A DNA stretch of 64,000 nt from Sphingobacteriales bacterium. Its GTDB lineage: Bacteria > Bacteroidota > Bacteroidia > Chitinophagales > Chitinophagaceae. Positions 10,130-15,040 of the stretch are shown piece after piece. The stretch is from assembly GCA_023251235.1 (NCBI GenBank), contig JAHEZE010000004.1:654-64653 (forward strand), written 5' to 3'. Numbering within the stretch: position 1 is the stretch's first letter; each line of letters starts with the position of its first letter. Both the position numbers and the translations under genes were made by a program. The notes beneath the pieces were generated by a model. The model had not been told where the DNA came from. It saw nothing but the letters and a program-made list of their open reading frames with translations, and made no database searches.

Positions 10130-11989
10130 TTGCCAGACAAGATTTTATTATTGCCCGATAACATTGCCAACCAGATAGCGGCCGGTGAAGTAATTCAACG
10201 GCCCGCCAGTGCGGTAAAAGAACTTTTGGAAAATGCAGTAGATGCCGGAGCTAAAGAAATCAAACTTATCATTAATGATGCAGGAAAATCTTTAGTACAG
10301 GTAATAGACAATGGCGGCGGCATGAGTGAAACAGATGCACGAATGAGTTTTGAACGTCATGCTACATCCAAGATTACTACTATTGAAGATTTATTTCATA
10401 TAAAAACAATGGGCTTCCGGGGCGAAGCGCTGGCTTCTATTGCTGCCGTGGCGCAAGTAGAATTAAAAACCAAAAGACTTGAAGACGAAACGGCGACTTA
10501 TATTGAAGTAGAAAATAGTGTTGTAAAAAAACAAGAAGTCATTGCGGCGCCAATCGGAACCAGCATTGCCATGAAGAATTTATTCTTCAATGTGCCGGCA
10601 CGAAGAAATTTTCTGAAAAGTAATAATGCAGAGATGCGTCATATCGTCGATGAATTTACAAGAGTGGCGCTGGCTTTCCCCCATATCTTTTTTTCTTTTA
10701 CAGCAAACAATCAGCAAATCTTTCACCTGGAAGCAGGAAGTATGAAACAGCGGATTCTTCAGTTGCTGGGCAATAACTATAATACAAAACTTGTTGCTGT
10801 AAAAGAAGAAACCGATTACATGAATATTTATGGTTTTGTTGGCAAACCCGAAACTGCTAAAAAGACAAGAGGTGATCAGTATTTTTTTGTCAACAACCGC
10901 TTTATTAAAAGTGCCTACCTGAATCATGCGGTAATGAATGCTTACCAGGAAATGATTACCAAAGACAGTTTCCCGACCTATGTACTTTTTATTGATCTTG
11001 ACCCACAACAGGTGGATGTAAATGTGCACCCGACCAAACAGGAAATAAAATTTGAAGATGAAAAAATTATTTATGCATTTGTACAGGCAGCGGTAAAACA
11101 TTCCCTGGCACAATTCAGCGTTACTCCTACTTTGGATTTTGAATTGGATGCTACCATTCAGCAACTGCCCTCCATTCAGCAACCATTTACTGAAGAAAAA
11201 AAATCGGCTGCTTCTTCATCTTCAATTTTCAAAGGATTTACTGAAAAACATCAGGCACATTTTATTGAGCCAACAAAGAAGAGTGAGCTGAAACACTGGA
11301 GGGAATTCTATGAGGGAGACAAGGAACAAAAAGAAAATATTCAACAATCAACAATCAATGCTCAATTTTCTAGTGAGCTTCCGGACTCTATTCACCATTC
11401 ACCATTCACCATTCACGATTTACGATTCACGAATCTTCTTCAATTACACAACCAATACATTCTTGCGCAAACAGACAATGGATTTATTCTTATCAACCAA
11501 CAACCGGCACATGAAAGAATTATCTATGAACGATTGCAGGAAGCTACTAAAGGAAAGCCCGTTGCAACACAACGAAACATGTTCCCGGTAACTTTTGAAT
11601 TGCCGCCCTCCGATGCAATTATACTGGTAGAATTAATGAATGATCTGCAGCAACTCGGCTATCTGATTGAACCCTTTGGTAAAAATACATTTGTAATACA
11701 AGGCACACCGGCTGATATGGCCCAGGGAAATGAAAAACAGGTGGTCGATTCTTTGCTGGAACAATACAAACATTTCAGTTCGGATTTGAAATTTTCCAAA
11801 AGAGAAAAATTGATCCGTTCGCTGGCATTACAGCAATCTATCAAAGCCGGAAGACAACTTGAAGAAAAAGAAATGCAGTTGTTGGTTGAAGAGTTACTTA
11901 AATGCAAACAACCTAATTCGTCACCAGATGGTAAGCCAACTTACTTAGAATTTAGGAATGAGCAATTGAGCAGGATGTTCGAAGATTGA
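10130..11989 (+). CDS. mutL: DNA mismatch repair protein MutL
   Basis: 619 aa with a GHKL ATPase N-domain (NQIAAGEVIQRPASAVKELLENAVDAG, DNGGGM) and a C-terminal dimerisation domain (QQPAHERIIYE). A TTG start at 10130 is needed to include the conserved N-terminus. The linker contains two heptamer arrays. Confidence 0.95.
   Translation: MPDKILLLPDNIANQIAAGEVIQRPASAVKELLENAVDAGAKEIKLIINDAGKSLVQVIDNGGGMSETDARMSFERHATSKITTIEDLFHIKTMGFRGEALASIAAVAQVELKTKRLEDETATYIEVENSVVKKQEVIAAPIGTSIAMKNLFFNVPARRNFLKSNNAEMRHIVDEFTRVALAFPHIFFSFTANNQQIFHLEAGSMKQRILQLLGNNYNTKLVAVKEETDYMNIYGFVGKPETAKKTRGDQYFFVNNRFIKSAYLNHAVMNAYQEMITKDSFPTYVLFIDLDPQQVDVNVHPTKQEIKFEDEKIIYAFVQAAVKHSLAQFSVTPTLDFELDATIQQLPSIQQPFTEEKKSAASSSSIFKGFTEKHQAHFIEPTKKSELKHWREFYEGDKEQKENIQQSTINAQFSSELPDSIHHSPFTIHDLRFTNLLQLHNQYILAQTDNGFILINQQPAHERIIYERLQEATKGKPVATQRNMFPVTFELPPSDAIILVELMNDLQQLGYLIEPFGKNTFVIQGTPADMAQGNEKQVVDSLLEQYKHFSSDLKFSKREKLIRSLALQQSIKAGRQLEEKEMQLLVEELLKCKQPNSSPDGKPTYLEFRNEQLSRMFED
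11338..11365 (+). repeat. Heptamer array (NNNTCAA x4) in the mutL linker
   Basis: tattcaa caatcaa caatcaa tgctcaa, translated as NIQQSTINAQ. It shares the exact 14-mer aatcaatgctcaat with the array at 31739-31752. Confidence 0.75.
11390..11438 (+). repeat. Heptamer array (ATTCACC x3, ATTCACG, ATTTACG, ATTCACG, AATCTTC) in the mutL linker
   Basis: Read directly. The six clean units total 42 nt (14 codons) and are translated as IHHSPFTIHDLRFT, immediately before the C-terminal domain. Confidence 0.9.
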
Positions 11990-12066
11990 ATTAATAATGA
12001 ATAATTAAAAATTAAGAATTGCTTCGCTGACTGAAATTGTTAATTATTAATTTTTAATTCTTAATT
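11988..12066. repeat. Inverted pair of heptamer arrays, (NAATTAA)x5 - 14-nt loop - (NTTAATT)x4, between convergent mutL and dacB
   Basis: The left arm is 11988-12022 and overlaps the mutL stop. The right arm is 12037-12066 and encodes the last residues and stop of dacB (QLRIKN*). The arms are mutually complementary, so this could be a bidirectional AT-rich terminator hairpin. Confidence 0.8.
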
Positions 12067-13381
12067 GATGTATGAATTTCTCCACCGCCCTTCTTACTGC
12101 TGTTGCAGATGCCTGATGATTATTAACTAAAGTCGAAAAAATAAGTAGCTTTCCTTTTTTAGTGTACATATATCCACTGAGAGCCACTACACCACCCAGC
12201 GTTCCGGTTTTAGCATAAATAAAACTACTATCAGATTTGTAGTAGTTGCTGATAGTTCCTTCGCCCCCGGTTGGTAAAACGACTTTGATTCTATCCATTC
12301 CAAATTCATTTTTCATTTTATCAAGGATAGAAACAAAATCCTGTGGAGTAAAAAGATTGTAACGGCTAAGTCCTGATCCATCCACCCATCTTGGTTTTTG
12401 CGGCAGATCTTTAAAATCTGTTTTAAGTAATGTATCTATAATTTTTTCATCGTTCATTACACCCAGCTTTTCATTACTCACCATCAGCAAACTTTGTTCA
12501 GCAAAAAAATTATCACTATTATGCATCATAGGTTTTAAGAGGGAGTCCGTAGATTGTGTTTTGATATAGCGGGCCGACAAATCATTTTTTTTAAATTGTT
12601 TGAAGAACAATTCATCATTCATTAACGATATAGATTTCCCAATTGTATCTGGCAACAATTCCAAAGCTGCCTTTATTCCATCGGTAACAAAAGGAACATA
12701 AAGCTCTTTATATTTTTCCTTGCTCTGAAGCAGTTCAAATACATTTTCACCAATTTTTCTTTTTACATCAAATTTTTTTGTCTCTTCAACACTTCTGAAA
12801 TTTACTTCCCAATTAATTTCAGGAACTGAATATATCGTTGTCGGTTCCTTTCCGTTTTCGCCCTCCTGCACCCATTTCAGAACATTCCCATATACTGGCA
12901 TAGGGCTTCTTTCCGCCATATAACTTTCATTGTAATCATTCCAAGACCAACCAGATCCAAGTGCTTCTGATTTCCACATGACCTCATTGATGTATATCTT
13001 CTTTTTTGACTGTTTTAAAAAATCAAATGCCGGTTGATGTTTAAAATCCGGGTGAAGAAGTGTAGGATCGCCTTCAGGTAAAATAAATAAAGCTGTATCA
13101 TTTTCTATTGTCACAAAACACTTCAAACTATCTCCCAAATATTTCATCGCAGCATAACAGGTAGGAATTTTTGTATTACTGGCAGGCACAAAATATTTAT
13201 CGCCCTGGTAATTGTACCAATATTTTCCGGTTGCCGGTTCATAAATGCTGATGCCAACATGAGCAGTGAGGAGTGAGCTGTCTTTTAATACAAGTTGTTT
13301 GGCCGACTTAGAAATTTTCTGTTGTACTGAACAGGATGTAAGAATTAATAATGAATAATTAATAATTAATAATTTTTTCAT
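12047..13381 (-). CDS. dacB: D-alanyl-D-alanine carboxypeptidase/endopeptidase (PBP4, peptidase S13)
   Basis: It has an SNTK active-site motif and KTGTL near the C-terminus. The start is probably the ATG at 13381, giving MKKLLIINYSLLILTSC with a lipobox. The ORF track's 13390 start is also an ATG. Confidence 0.8.
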   Translation of the reverse strand: MKKLLIINYSLLILTSCSVQQKISKSAKQLVLKDSSLLTAHVGISIYEPATGKYWYNYQGDKYFVPASNTKIPTCYAAMKYLGDSLKCFVTIENDTALFILPEGDPTLLHPDFKHQPAFDFLKQSKKKIYINEVMWKSEALGSGWSWNDYNESYMAERSPMPVYGNVLKWVQEGENGKEPTTIYSVPEINWEVNFRSVEETKKFDVKRKIGENVFELLQSKEKYKELYVPFVTDGIKAALELLPDTIGKSISLMNDELFFKQFKKNDLSARYIKTQSTDSLLKPMMHNSDNFFAEQSLLMVSNEKLGVMNDEKIIDTLLKTDFKDLPQKPRWVDGSGLSRYNLFTPQDFVSILDKMKNEFGMDRIKVVLPTGGEGTISNYYKSDSSFIYAKTGTLGGVVALSGYMYTKKGKLLIFSTLVNNHQASATAVRRAVEKFIHQLRIKN

Positions 13382-13413
13382 TTCCAGCATTCTTAATTTT
13401 CAATTCTTAATTA
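13343..13413. repeat. Inverted pair of heptamer arrays bracketing the dacB start codon
   Basis: (AATTAAT-like)x5 at 13343-13377 encodes the signal-peptide core. (CTTAATT/TTCAATT)x3 lies at 13392-13413. The loop at 13378-13391 holds both candidate ATGs. 13343-13374 matches 11989-12020 at 30 of 32 positions. Confidence 0.8.
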
Positions 13414-14550
13414 ACTTCTTTCCTGTGCCCGCAACCAGCGTTCAGGAATTTCATTACTGCTGGCAAGTAAATAATCTTTATAGCTGCATGCGATAAAACG
13501 TTTATCAGGAAGCTGCATCCACCAGCGGCCGGTTTTTTTGCTTTGCAGAAAAGTAGTGTCCACCTCAGCAAAAGCCATGTGGTATTCAGAAAAAGAATCT
13601 CTTTCATCCAGCTTGGCTTCTTTTCTTCCACGACTTCTGCCATCTAATAAATACCAAAGCATCTGGCTTATTTGTTTAGCAGTAAGATCATGCAGGTCAT
13701 TATCCGGGTCATAACCATAAATACCGATTGTATTTACATTCGGGCTCATACCGGCATAGCGCATCAATACACAACTTTCTTCGCCGTTAAAACCGTTTGG
13801 TGAATTTAAATTAGCCGGTGCATATGCATGTGCAAGAGCAGAAATATCAAAACTGAAAAGTTGTGAATTGCGAATCACCGGTTCCATTTCATCAATACTC
13901 TCTTTTACATGCCCCACACGAAAACAGTCGAAGCGCAGCTTATCCAATGTTTCCAGCATCCGCGGATGCACATAATAACTCTGGAAACCTATATGATTGT
14001 AATGCCTCACATAGTTTGGTTCACCTGTAAGCATTTCCATTAAAAAATTATCGCAGCGGAAATCAGAATCAAGATTCAGATCAATCAAAGCATCTACATT
14101 GGTTACTTCAACGATGGATTTGTTTGCTTCATACGCATAATACTGAGCCAGCGTAAGATCATGTGAGCCCCCAAGAAGGATTACTGTTTTTCTTTCATTG
14201 ATCAGTTCATTGATAACCGTTCTTAATGCGGCATAGGTATCAGCAAGATCAGCTCCTTTACGAAGATTGCCCAAATCTGCTATGTGAAGATCCTGGTGCC
14301 AGAAATATAACTGGTAAAACTGGCGGCGGATAGCATCCGGAGCAGCACTATATGCAAGATGATGACCATTGCCTCTTTGTTCACCACAACCGATAAAGAC
14401 GAGATCAGCCTCATCTATGTCTGGAAAGCTTTCTTCATCATGAACTTTTATATTGGAACCTATTGTACCTTCTTTAAAATCCTGGTCAAATGAAAGTTCA
14501 CCCTTATTGATGGGCGAAAGGAAGTCGGCGATGTTAAGAAAGTCGGACAT
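13411..14550 (-). CDS. Arginase/formimidoylglutamase family protein
   Basis: 379 aa. It shows a ureohydrolase-fold signature (LLGGSHDLT, and DAL.D acidic clusters). Confidence 0.65.
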   Translation of the reverse strand: MSDFLNIADFLSPINKGELSFDQDFKEGTIGSNIKVHDEESFPDIDEADLVFIGCGEQRGNGHHLAYSAAPDAIRRQFYQLYFWHQDLHIADLGNLRKGADLADTYAALRTVINELINERKTVILLGGSHDLTLAQYYAYEANKSIVEVTNVDALIDLNLDSDFRCDNFLMEMLTGEPNYVRHYNHIGFQSYYVHPRMLETLDKLRFDCFRVGHVKESIDEMEPVIRNSQLFSFDISALAHAYAPANLNSPNGFNGEESCVLMRYAGMSPNVNTIGIYGYDPDNDLHDLTAKQISQMLWYLLDGRSRGRKEAKLDERDSFSEYHMAFAEVDTTFLQSKKTGRWWMQLPDKRFIACSYKDYLLASSNEIPERWLRAQERS

Positions 14551-14632
14551 TGGTACTATTTGACAACAAACTTACAAGAAAACAGGCAGTATTTGCTTGC
14601 TTCAATTCTCATATTATGCTTATCTTGGGGTA

Positions 14633-15040
14633 TTGAAAAAAACTTTAGCATCCATATTAACAATATCATTTTTCGTAAGTACCATCATTATGCCTTACAG
14701 CAATTTTGATGACACCCGACTACTTTCTTCACTATATCGTGAAAGTCAGCAGGAAGATACTGACATGAATATTGGCGAGTTTATTTTTGAGAAACTGCTT
14801 ACCATCGGTAAACTTTTCGAGGGAAAAGAAGAAGATGCTCCAATAATTCCTTTTCATAATCAGCATACTCCTCCACAGGTGCAGATGCTTCAATCGGGAT
14901 CCTTATACTGTTTGAAAATAAATACTCCGGAGAAAGATAAAGAGCAAGTAGCTGATAAACCCACCTGCTCTTTTAGAGAAAATAAATTCTCTTTTGATTA
15001 TCATGCTATAGTTTTTCACCCGCCGGCATTAATAGCCTGA
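14633..15040 (+). CDS. Hypothetical membrane-anchored or secreted protein
   Basis: An in-frame TTG at 14633 gives (M)KKTLASILTISFFVSTIIM, which looks like a signal or anchor. I recognise no family. It lies upstream of the OM receptor/efflux cluster. The start is uncertain; the ORF track uses a TTG at 14597. Confidence 0.35.
   Translation: MKKTLASILTISFFVSTIIMPYSNFDDTRLLSSLYRESQQEDTDMNIGEFIFEKLLTIGKLFEGKEEDAPIIPFHNQHTPPQVQMLQSGSLYCLKINTPEKDKEQVADKPTCSFRENKFSFDYHAIVFHPPALIA

Follow-up and report, generated by a model that had tools for sequence, protein, structure and literature searches.

Both ends of dacB, a gene for a lipoprotein of the PBP4 type, lie within A/T-rich arrays of tandem 7-nt units, each array being paired with an inverted partner 14-29 nt away. 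It is probable (about 0.6) that these two hairpins are ordinary members of a set of heptameric simple sequence repeat (SSR) hairpins found at gene boundaries across the genome and across the family Chitinophagaceae. The kind of feature is already known; the comparative twist is an array at the dacB start that holds its position family-wide while its unit turns over. The dacB leader and signal peptide have kept a 7-nt array in about two-thirds of 84 Chitinophagaceae species while the unit changed, and the complementary upstream arm has often changed too. It is tempting to take any gene with repeats set tidily at its two ends for a cassette; the analysis dismisses that idea and shows what the brackets are here. 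The stretch of DNA analysed (the window; 64,000 nt, G000:C109:654-64653) comes from the genome of a soil Chitinophagaceae bacterium (G000; 3.23 Mb, 37.5% G+C, 181 contigs); other G numbers denote genomes of relatives, and L numbers orthologous loci.

Heptamer-array hairpins at gene boundaries

Tandem Repeats Finder (TRF) calls period-7 arrays at 11989-12020, 12035-12066, 13339-13374 and 13389-13412 of the window, with 4.6, 4.6, 5.1 and 3.4 copies, respectively, and hence with the three or more head-to-tail 7-nt units of a heptameric SSR. The arrays form two inverted pairs. At the 3' end of dacB, 11988-12013 is 88% complementary to 12035-12060 over 26 nt, and at the 5' end 13339-13359 is 81% complementary to 13389-13409 over 21 nt; the arms of a pair share their unit, run on opposite strands and are only 14-29 nt apart. 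In direct orientation the left arms of the two hairpins (11989-12020 and 13343-13374) are identical at 30/32 positions, and the right arms at 22/24. The arrays, the inverted pairs, their overlap with stop codons, the ATGs in the loop, the coding arms and the 30/32 repeat had all been described in an earlier note on this DNA, and every one of these was confirmed. A 21-mer singled out in that note has four matches in the window at no more than three mismatches, against 0.01 expected from shuffles, and 27 at the same threshold in the whole genome, with three exact copies. The array pattern is real and non-random, though it is not unique to the locus. The features are as follows.

10130..11989, plus strand: mutL, convergent with dacB; Pfam domains DNA_mis_repair, MutL_C and HATPase_c_3
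11988..12021, plus strand: left arm of the 3' hairpin, (NAATTAA)x4.7, in which one unit reads AATGAA; overlaps the mutL stop
12022..12034, no strand assigned: loop of the 3' hairpin, which differs between species
12035..12066, plus strand: right arm of the 3' hairpin; holds the dacB stop (12047-12049) and encodes the end of DacB, QLRIKN
12047..13390, minus strand: dacB, PBP4-type D-Ala-D-Ala carboxypeptidase/endopeptidase lipoprotein of 447 aa; Pfam Peptidase_S13
13339..13377, plus strand: left arm of the 5' hairpin; its minus-strand translation is the hydrophobic core of the signal peptide (KKLLIINYSLLIL)
13378..13388, minus strand: loop of the 5' hairpin; the second ATG (13381) lies inside it and the orthologous start ATG (13390) at the loop/arm edge
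13389..13413, plus strand: right arm of the 5' hairpin; occupies the entire 20-nt spacer from the arginase-family stop (13411-13413) to the dacB start
13411..14550, minus strand: arginase-family gene, directly upstream of dacB and on the same strand; Pfam Arginase, E = 2.5e-17

DacB matches PF02113 (Peptidase_S13) with E = 3.9e-43 and has the complete catalytic motifs of an S13 member (SNTK71, SDN292 and KTG394, for SxxK, SxN and KTG), with a lipobox, LTSC, at residues 17-20. The arrays reach into the reading frames at each end. The mutL stop, TGA at 11987-11989, is inside an array, as is the dacB stop, the terminal QLRIKN being encoded by CAATTAAGAATTAAAAATTAA. At the other end, LLIINYSLLIL of the signal-peptide core is array-encoded, and both candidate ATGs fall in or at the edge of a 14-nt loop (13378-13391).

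Such arrays abound in the genome. Among arrays with at least four copies, TRF finds 129 at period 7, compared with 19 and 14 at periods 6 and 8, respectively, a 7- to 9-fold over-representation that involves many unit families, AATTAAT being the commonest. By crude open reading frame (ORF) calls, 59% of 211 period-7 arrays lie no more than 40 nt from a start and/or stop codon, as against 15% of random placements, and arrays touching a start and a stop together are enriched tenfold. Partners that match in inverted orientation at 17/21 positions or better, no more than 110 nt away, accompany 27 of 209 merged arrays, whereas direct partners of equal quality accompany none, and there are about 31 heptamer-array hairpins in the genome, of diverse unit types. 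That 23 of 27 hairpins adjoin a stop codon is uninformative, since it equals the ~85% expected from assumed proportions of gene-pair orientations. Translation of arrays is also seen elsewhere: about nine further N-terminal sites, MKKKIVLFYSLFLISYSLFSQ and MNKCFRRIIIINFSLLIVNYSNAQ among them, read by eye as signal peptides, and arrays occur in frame in the MutL linker, pheS and holB.

Unit turnover at the dacB start and the mutL/dacB junction

The 5' array was followed through 260 nt around the dacB start at 84 unique orthologous loci, an array being called where at least 19 of 28 positions matched at period 7. It is found at 55 of the 84, compared with 2/37 at the 5' end of the arginase-family gene, 0/31 at the 5' end of mutL and 0/84 in the middle of dacB. 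The array always lies in the codons of the hydrophobic core, just ahead of the lipobox Cys, and is built across species from units as different as ATTATTA, TCGTACA/TCGTACT, TTCTTAT/TTCCTTA, ACTTTTT, CTCTTAA, TTCATCA and ATTCTGT. In 19-21 of the 84 loci a reverse-complement arm fills the spacer from the upstream stop to the dacB ATG, against four for direct-repeat controls (Wilcoxon P = 9e-6 for the excess). These 5' stems are of 17-39 bp, 82-95% paired, and come from at least five unit families. The upstream arm is present whichever gene lies upstream, and this independence implies that the stem belongs to the start of dacB rather than to the end of its neighbor.

The stems predicted in relatives have free energies of -24 to -29 kcal/mol at 37 C. 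That of the window, whose loop is ~18 nt shorter, is weaker, at -13 kcal/mol over 96 nt at 37 C, a fold that includes a CAGGA/UCCUG clamp joining the last arginase-family codons with the lipobox codons. This start region was also considered as a putative RNA thermometer or translational stem-loop, in which a weak stem would melt within the physiological range: at 10 C the predicted energy is -29 kcal/mol, as against -13 at 37 C, with the same minimum free energy (MFE) fold predicted at all four temperatures between them that were compared. The arrangement is best understood as an old, position-stable heptamer array translated as the core of a lipoprotein signal peptide, a segment that tolerates any greasy sequence; in about a quarter of species the reverse complement fills the upstream spacer, so placing the start codon and the charged N-region in the loop. 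Such a 5' stem probably damps dacB translation or couples dacB to the upstream gene.

Other repeats were encountered at the same junction. Many species have a second, widespread heptamer array, (ATTCAAT/GCTCAAT/GTTCAAT)n, just ahead of the dacB start (L004-L008, L010, L011, L014, L019-L021, L059, L063, L065, L071, L079-L081, L092 and L096); this upstream array has no complementary partner in the signal-peptide codons. In L010/L049 and L101 a small G+C hairpin (cccgatagctatcggg) is inserted in the signal-peptide array and read in frame; its motif also turns up at other places, such as near G000:C166:1300. A dispersed element of intergenic DNA, which contains GTGCGACGCAACAGAAGCTTAATAGTAGCA, occupies the 180-400-nt spacer between the arginase-family gene and dacB in L004-L008, L010, L011, L014, L019 and L020. 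In G000 it has 11 copies at no more than five mismatches (on C12, C66, C70, C79, C99, C122, C131, C135, C151, C157 and C166); it is absent upstream of dacB in the window and has no match in Rfam.

At the 3' junction a hairpin is the rule although its sequence is not. In nearly all short-spacer orthologues the convergent stops of mutL and dacB are separated by a long inverted repeat that abuts both, with sequences that are completely different between species; among the types are G+C-rich stems (gcccctc...gggggc), cacgcaaagacgc...gcgtctttgcgtg, gagaaggagaaaaagag... and other heptamer arrays. G015 and G013 have the AATTAAT version in orthologous form, with arms that are 92-97% identical between species, compared with 74-82% in adjacent coding bins, while the loops match at 5-6 of 13 positions (~40%) and differ in length. 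Conserved arms combined with free loops, at a place where a hairpin is always present, are the best evidence for a structural role. The predicted stability of the RNA is -11.6 kcal/mol on the dacB strand (z = -4.6) and -12.9 kcal/mol on the mutL strand (z = -1.4). Most likely the 3' hairpin acts as a stem-loop shared by the 3' ends of the convergent mutL and dacB transcripts, where it would protect or punctuate transcript ends, as REP elements do.

The array also alters the DacB tail, which reads ...QLRIKN* here and ...GIREKY* in relatives without the array. Comparable changes are seen in MutL, in that the G+C-rich junction hairpins of L003, L010, L020, L022, L073 and L079 overlap the mutL stop and replace the conserved C-terminus ...MFG(K/V)* by ...MFQ(K/R)PL*, ...MFRSPL*, ...MFGSPS* or ...MFQRPSS*. 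Intergenic hairpins at the mutL/dacB junction have repeatedly rewritten protein tails.

Origin of the direct repeat and the weighing of alternatives

Because the left arms are so alike, the question arises whether the repeats delimit a dacB cassette open to gain, loss or exchange between genomes, or are kept alike by ongoing conversion. Both had been raised in the earlier note, and neither withstood comparison with relatives. With respect to conversion, the 3' left arm matches its orthologues at 33/34 positions in G015 and 31/34 in G013, and the 3' right arm at 30/32 in each; the 5' left arm matches at 34-35/39 in G011 and G001, and the 5' right arm at 22/25 in G015, G011 and G001. At position 21 the 3' arm has an A (seen in G000, G015 and G013), where the 5' arm has a T (seen in G000, G001, G011, G015 and G004). 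Since orthologous arms are closer than paralogous ones, and each paralogue keeps its own base at position 21, ongoing conversion is not supported. A conversion tract extending into mutL was considered as well, there being an 11/12 match (TGAGCAGGATGT / TGAACAGGATGT) to the left of both arrays, and was rejected: the MutL ...LE(R)MF codons (gagaggatgtt) already give 10/12 in species without arrays, so that the match is a coincidence arising from conserved C-terminal codons.

Synteny refutes the notion that direct repeats bound a mobile cassette with dacB in it. About 20 genomes of the same genus, and two other genera, share the order mutL > dacB < arginase-family gene, and among further Chitinophagaceae loci mutL is in the flank of 50/80 and the arginase-family gene in that of 69/80, with or without arrays. 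Relatives keep the order without AATTAAT arrays, G011, for example, having a mere 8-nt spacer at the 3' junction. Of the two results that the earlier note had named as refuting its reading, an unchanged gene order in relatives without arrays was thus obtained in part; the other, a 21-mer very common genome-wide, was not. Within the genus, DacB sequences form two classes by identity (76-80% and 60-66%). Exchange of a cassette or of alleles at the arrays was considered and rejected, because the sharp drop in identity between the classes is internal to the gene (12530-13130) and not bounded by arrays. With the divergent stretch internal and the gene ends equally conserved, the arrays are not recombination break points. 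Thus, the direct identity of corresponding arms, the two allele classes and the confinement of the genome's AATTAAT-type hairpins to this one gene could each be accommodated by a recombination substrate, but the synteny, the position of the divergent segment, the orthologue-like arms with their fixed paralogue-specific base and the trivial origin of the flank match leave that explanation with next to no credit.

In a sliding comparison with 11 relatives, the nucleotide identity of the middle of dacB (window 12530-13130, residues ~87-287) to the window is 37-63% for one class of five genomes and 59-81% for the remaining six, whereas both dacB ends and both neighboring genes are equally conserved (~75-90%) in the two classes. 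In appearance this middle is a hypervariable or exchanged domain inside a PBP4-type enzyme.

The 30/32 identity is instead accounted for by the construction of the hairpins, both of which are built from one unit family in one orientation. They also share an AATGAA unit in the same register, which makes one old copying event plausible. In the signal-peptide copy the G of AATGAA turns the in-frame TAA, which comes once per 21 nt, into TCA (Ser); the G is therefore needed in the coding copy, and it is present in every species that has this signal-peptide array. It has no such role in the non-coding 3' arm, nor in a third copy at G000:C102:1589-1622. The latter, 34 nt long (GAATTAATAATGAATAATTAAAAATTAATAATTG), lies in the leader of a MIP/aquaporin-type channel gene, 9 nt before the start, and is without an inverted partner; its first 28 nt are identical to the 3' arm of the window, and all 34 nt are the same as in the dacB 3' arm of G015. 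The shared 28-mer is confined to the genus, being present in 14 of 21 genus genomes and in 0/20 from other genera, with up to six copies per genome. The likeliest origin would be a single copying event in the ancestor of the genus, the copies having evolved independently since. As the AATGAA G is needed only in the coding copy, that copy would be the probable source, and from the distribution of this base we infer that the non-coding copies derive from a copy of the coding type.

What the hairpins do, if anything, admits of several answers. The stem round the dacB start may be a selected structure, conserved across Chitinophagaceae with its sequence free to change, a tentative proposal at best; the switching of both arms together from one unit family to another would then be covariation of whole arrays, an idea to be held equally loosely. 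If true, heptamer arrays would be evolvable stem material for a device that couples or damps translation of a cell-wall hydrolase. Alternatively, the hairpins may be a neutral by-product without function, polymerase slippage favoring 7-nt units and intrastrand template switching at quasi-palindromes copying one arm onto the other, with arrays and their inverted partners gathering where constraint is weak, in spacers, C-terminal tails, signal-peptide cores and linkers. In-frame arrays such as those in the MutL linker, pheS and holB, the wholesale replacement of unit families between species and the degraded 5' stem of the window are all in keeping with such a process, whereas arms that are more conserved than neighboring coding DNA while the loops diverge, a dacB start array retained in 55/84 species as against ~0-5% at control sites, and the almost universal occurrence of some hairpin at the mutL/dacB junction are not; on balance a purely neutral origin is a serious possibility, albeit an unlikely one. 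Slipped-strand phase variation, in which gain or loss of a 7-nt unit in the signal-peptide codons would shift the frame and switch dacB on or off, is very improbable. The repeat does lie in leader-peptide codons, its 7-nt unit is not divisible by 3, and it includes a tract of perfect periodicity over 19 nt (TAATTAATAATTAATAATT), but the array is short and imperfect, and the fixed TAA-to-TCA change keeps the frames intact. Moreover, unit number and variant positions are constant in G000, G001, G011, G015 and G004, although coding DNA has diverged by ~20%; the copy number variation between close relatives that is typical of contingency loci is not seen in these five species, and this stability makes phase variation unlikely.

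Several results weigh against the reading favored here, of the dacB pairs as ordinary boundary hairpins. Strong constraint at the RNA level would favor G-U over A-C mismatches; in 19 orthologous 5' stems and 24 genome-wide hairpins combined, 27 G-U and 24 A-C mismatches were counted on the transcribed strand. There is no excess of G-U, and hence no sign in this count of selection on the stems at the RNA level. A process at the DNA level could yield matching arms, and the balance, as predicted for a strand-symmetric process, may reflect slippage and template switching at quasi-palindromes, or else low statistical power. A terminator scan gives no site at 11988-12066 or 13339-13413, and the stems consist almost entirely of A-T pairs and are followed by no U tract after either arm, unlike intrinsic terminators, in which the stem is G+C-rich and a U tract follows. 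When folded over 86 nt the 5' hairpin of the window is weak (z = -0.1), and MFE z-scores for 160-nt windows at the 84 loci, a blunt measure, average -0.5, with 17% below -2. Finally, the genome has just two inverted pairs of the AATTAAT type and both are at one gene, dacB, which makes fully independent placement unlikely.

Hairpin control of 3' ends and of translation start, as suggested in the earlier note, is the reading retained, at moderate confidence; there is no canonical terminator and no G-U bias. The dacB start is a natural test bed for distinguishing heptamer hairpins that are selected RNA structures from those that are products of DNA template switching, and for studying how repeats become coding in signal peptides and C-terminal tails.

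Relation to known repeat systems

Repeats that are read as leader peptides have a familiar precedent in the opa genes of Neisseria, where a coding repeat, (CTCTT)n, is long, perfect and hypervariable, and drives phase variation. As in opa, the hydrophobic signal-peptide core of DacB is encoded by a tandem repeat with a unit length indivisible by 3; unlike that of opa, the repeat of dacB is short and imperfect, and it is stable across species. REP/BIME and Rickettsia palindromic elements (RPEs) are dispersed, hairpin-forming intergenic elements at the 3' ends of genes, and RPEs can be read in frame. The array hairpins differ from these in having no single conserved sequence. The genome has four matches to PF01797 (Y1 transposase), three of them strong. 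The three Y1 (IS200/RAYT-like) transposase genes, at G000 C140:238-582, C166:719-1060 and C6:13691-14035, are each flanked by short G+C-containing palindromes (gcgttccagcggaacgc, tagcccacggtttaaaccgtgggcta, gctcctccggagc) that may mark a separate REP-like system. A link between the arrays and REP/RAYT was rejected, because the flanks of the three strong Y1 genes hold these other G+C-containing hairpins and no heptamer arrays. Rfam has no match in 11500-14800 of the window; MIR529-like matches in the loci of relatives are sub-threshold, lie on long hairpins and are taken as spurious.

Closer parallels are found among heptameric repeats. Heptanucleotide repeats near start codons include TAACTGA, the cyanobacterial short tandemly repeated repetitive (STRR) sequences and long simple sequence repeats (LSSRs) (Mrazek et al. 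2007, as summarized by MacGregor 2015, PMC4679880), and heptamer arrays beside start codons have been published for Beggiatoaceae, cyanobacteria and some Bacteroidetes (PMC4679880). As in those systems, period 7 is over-represented here, the published arrays sitting a few nucleotides upstream of start codons. Unlike the arrays described here, the published ones repeat a single unit in direct orientation, BOGUAY having the only indirect repeat reported, and they are not described as hairpins enclosing a start codon or as coding for signal peptides.

Inverted pairs are documented for the heptameric SSRs of Xanthomonas, (GGGAATC)n, and Nostoc, GGGGA(T/C)T, which occur as convergent arrays (Rehm et al. 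2015, PMC4692102). In Xanthomonas there are 70-75 pairs of arrays on opposite strands per genome, able to form stem-loops or cruciforms (PMC4692102). The present arrays resemble these SSRs in being tandem 7-nt repeats, typically of about four units, mostly intergenic and heterogeneous at some positions of the unit. They differ in that the units are A/T-rich and of many families, with no G-quadruplex potential, and in that the arrays overlap stops and starts, are translated and, at one orthologous site, are built from different units in different species.

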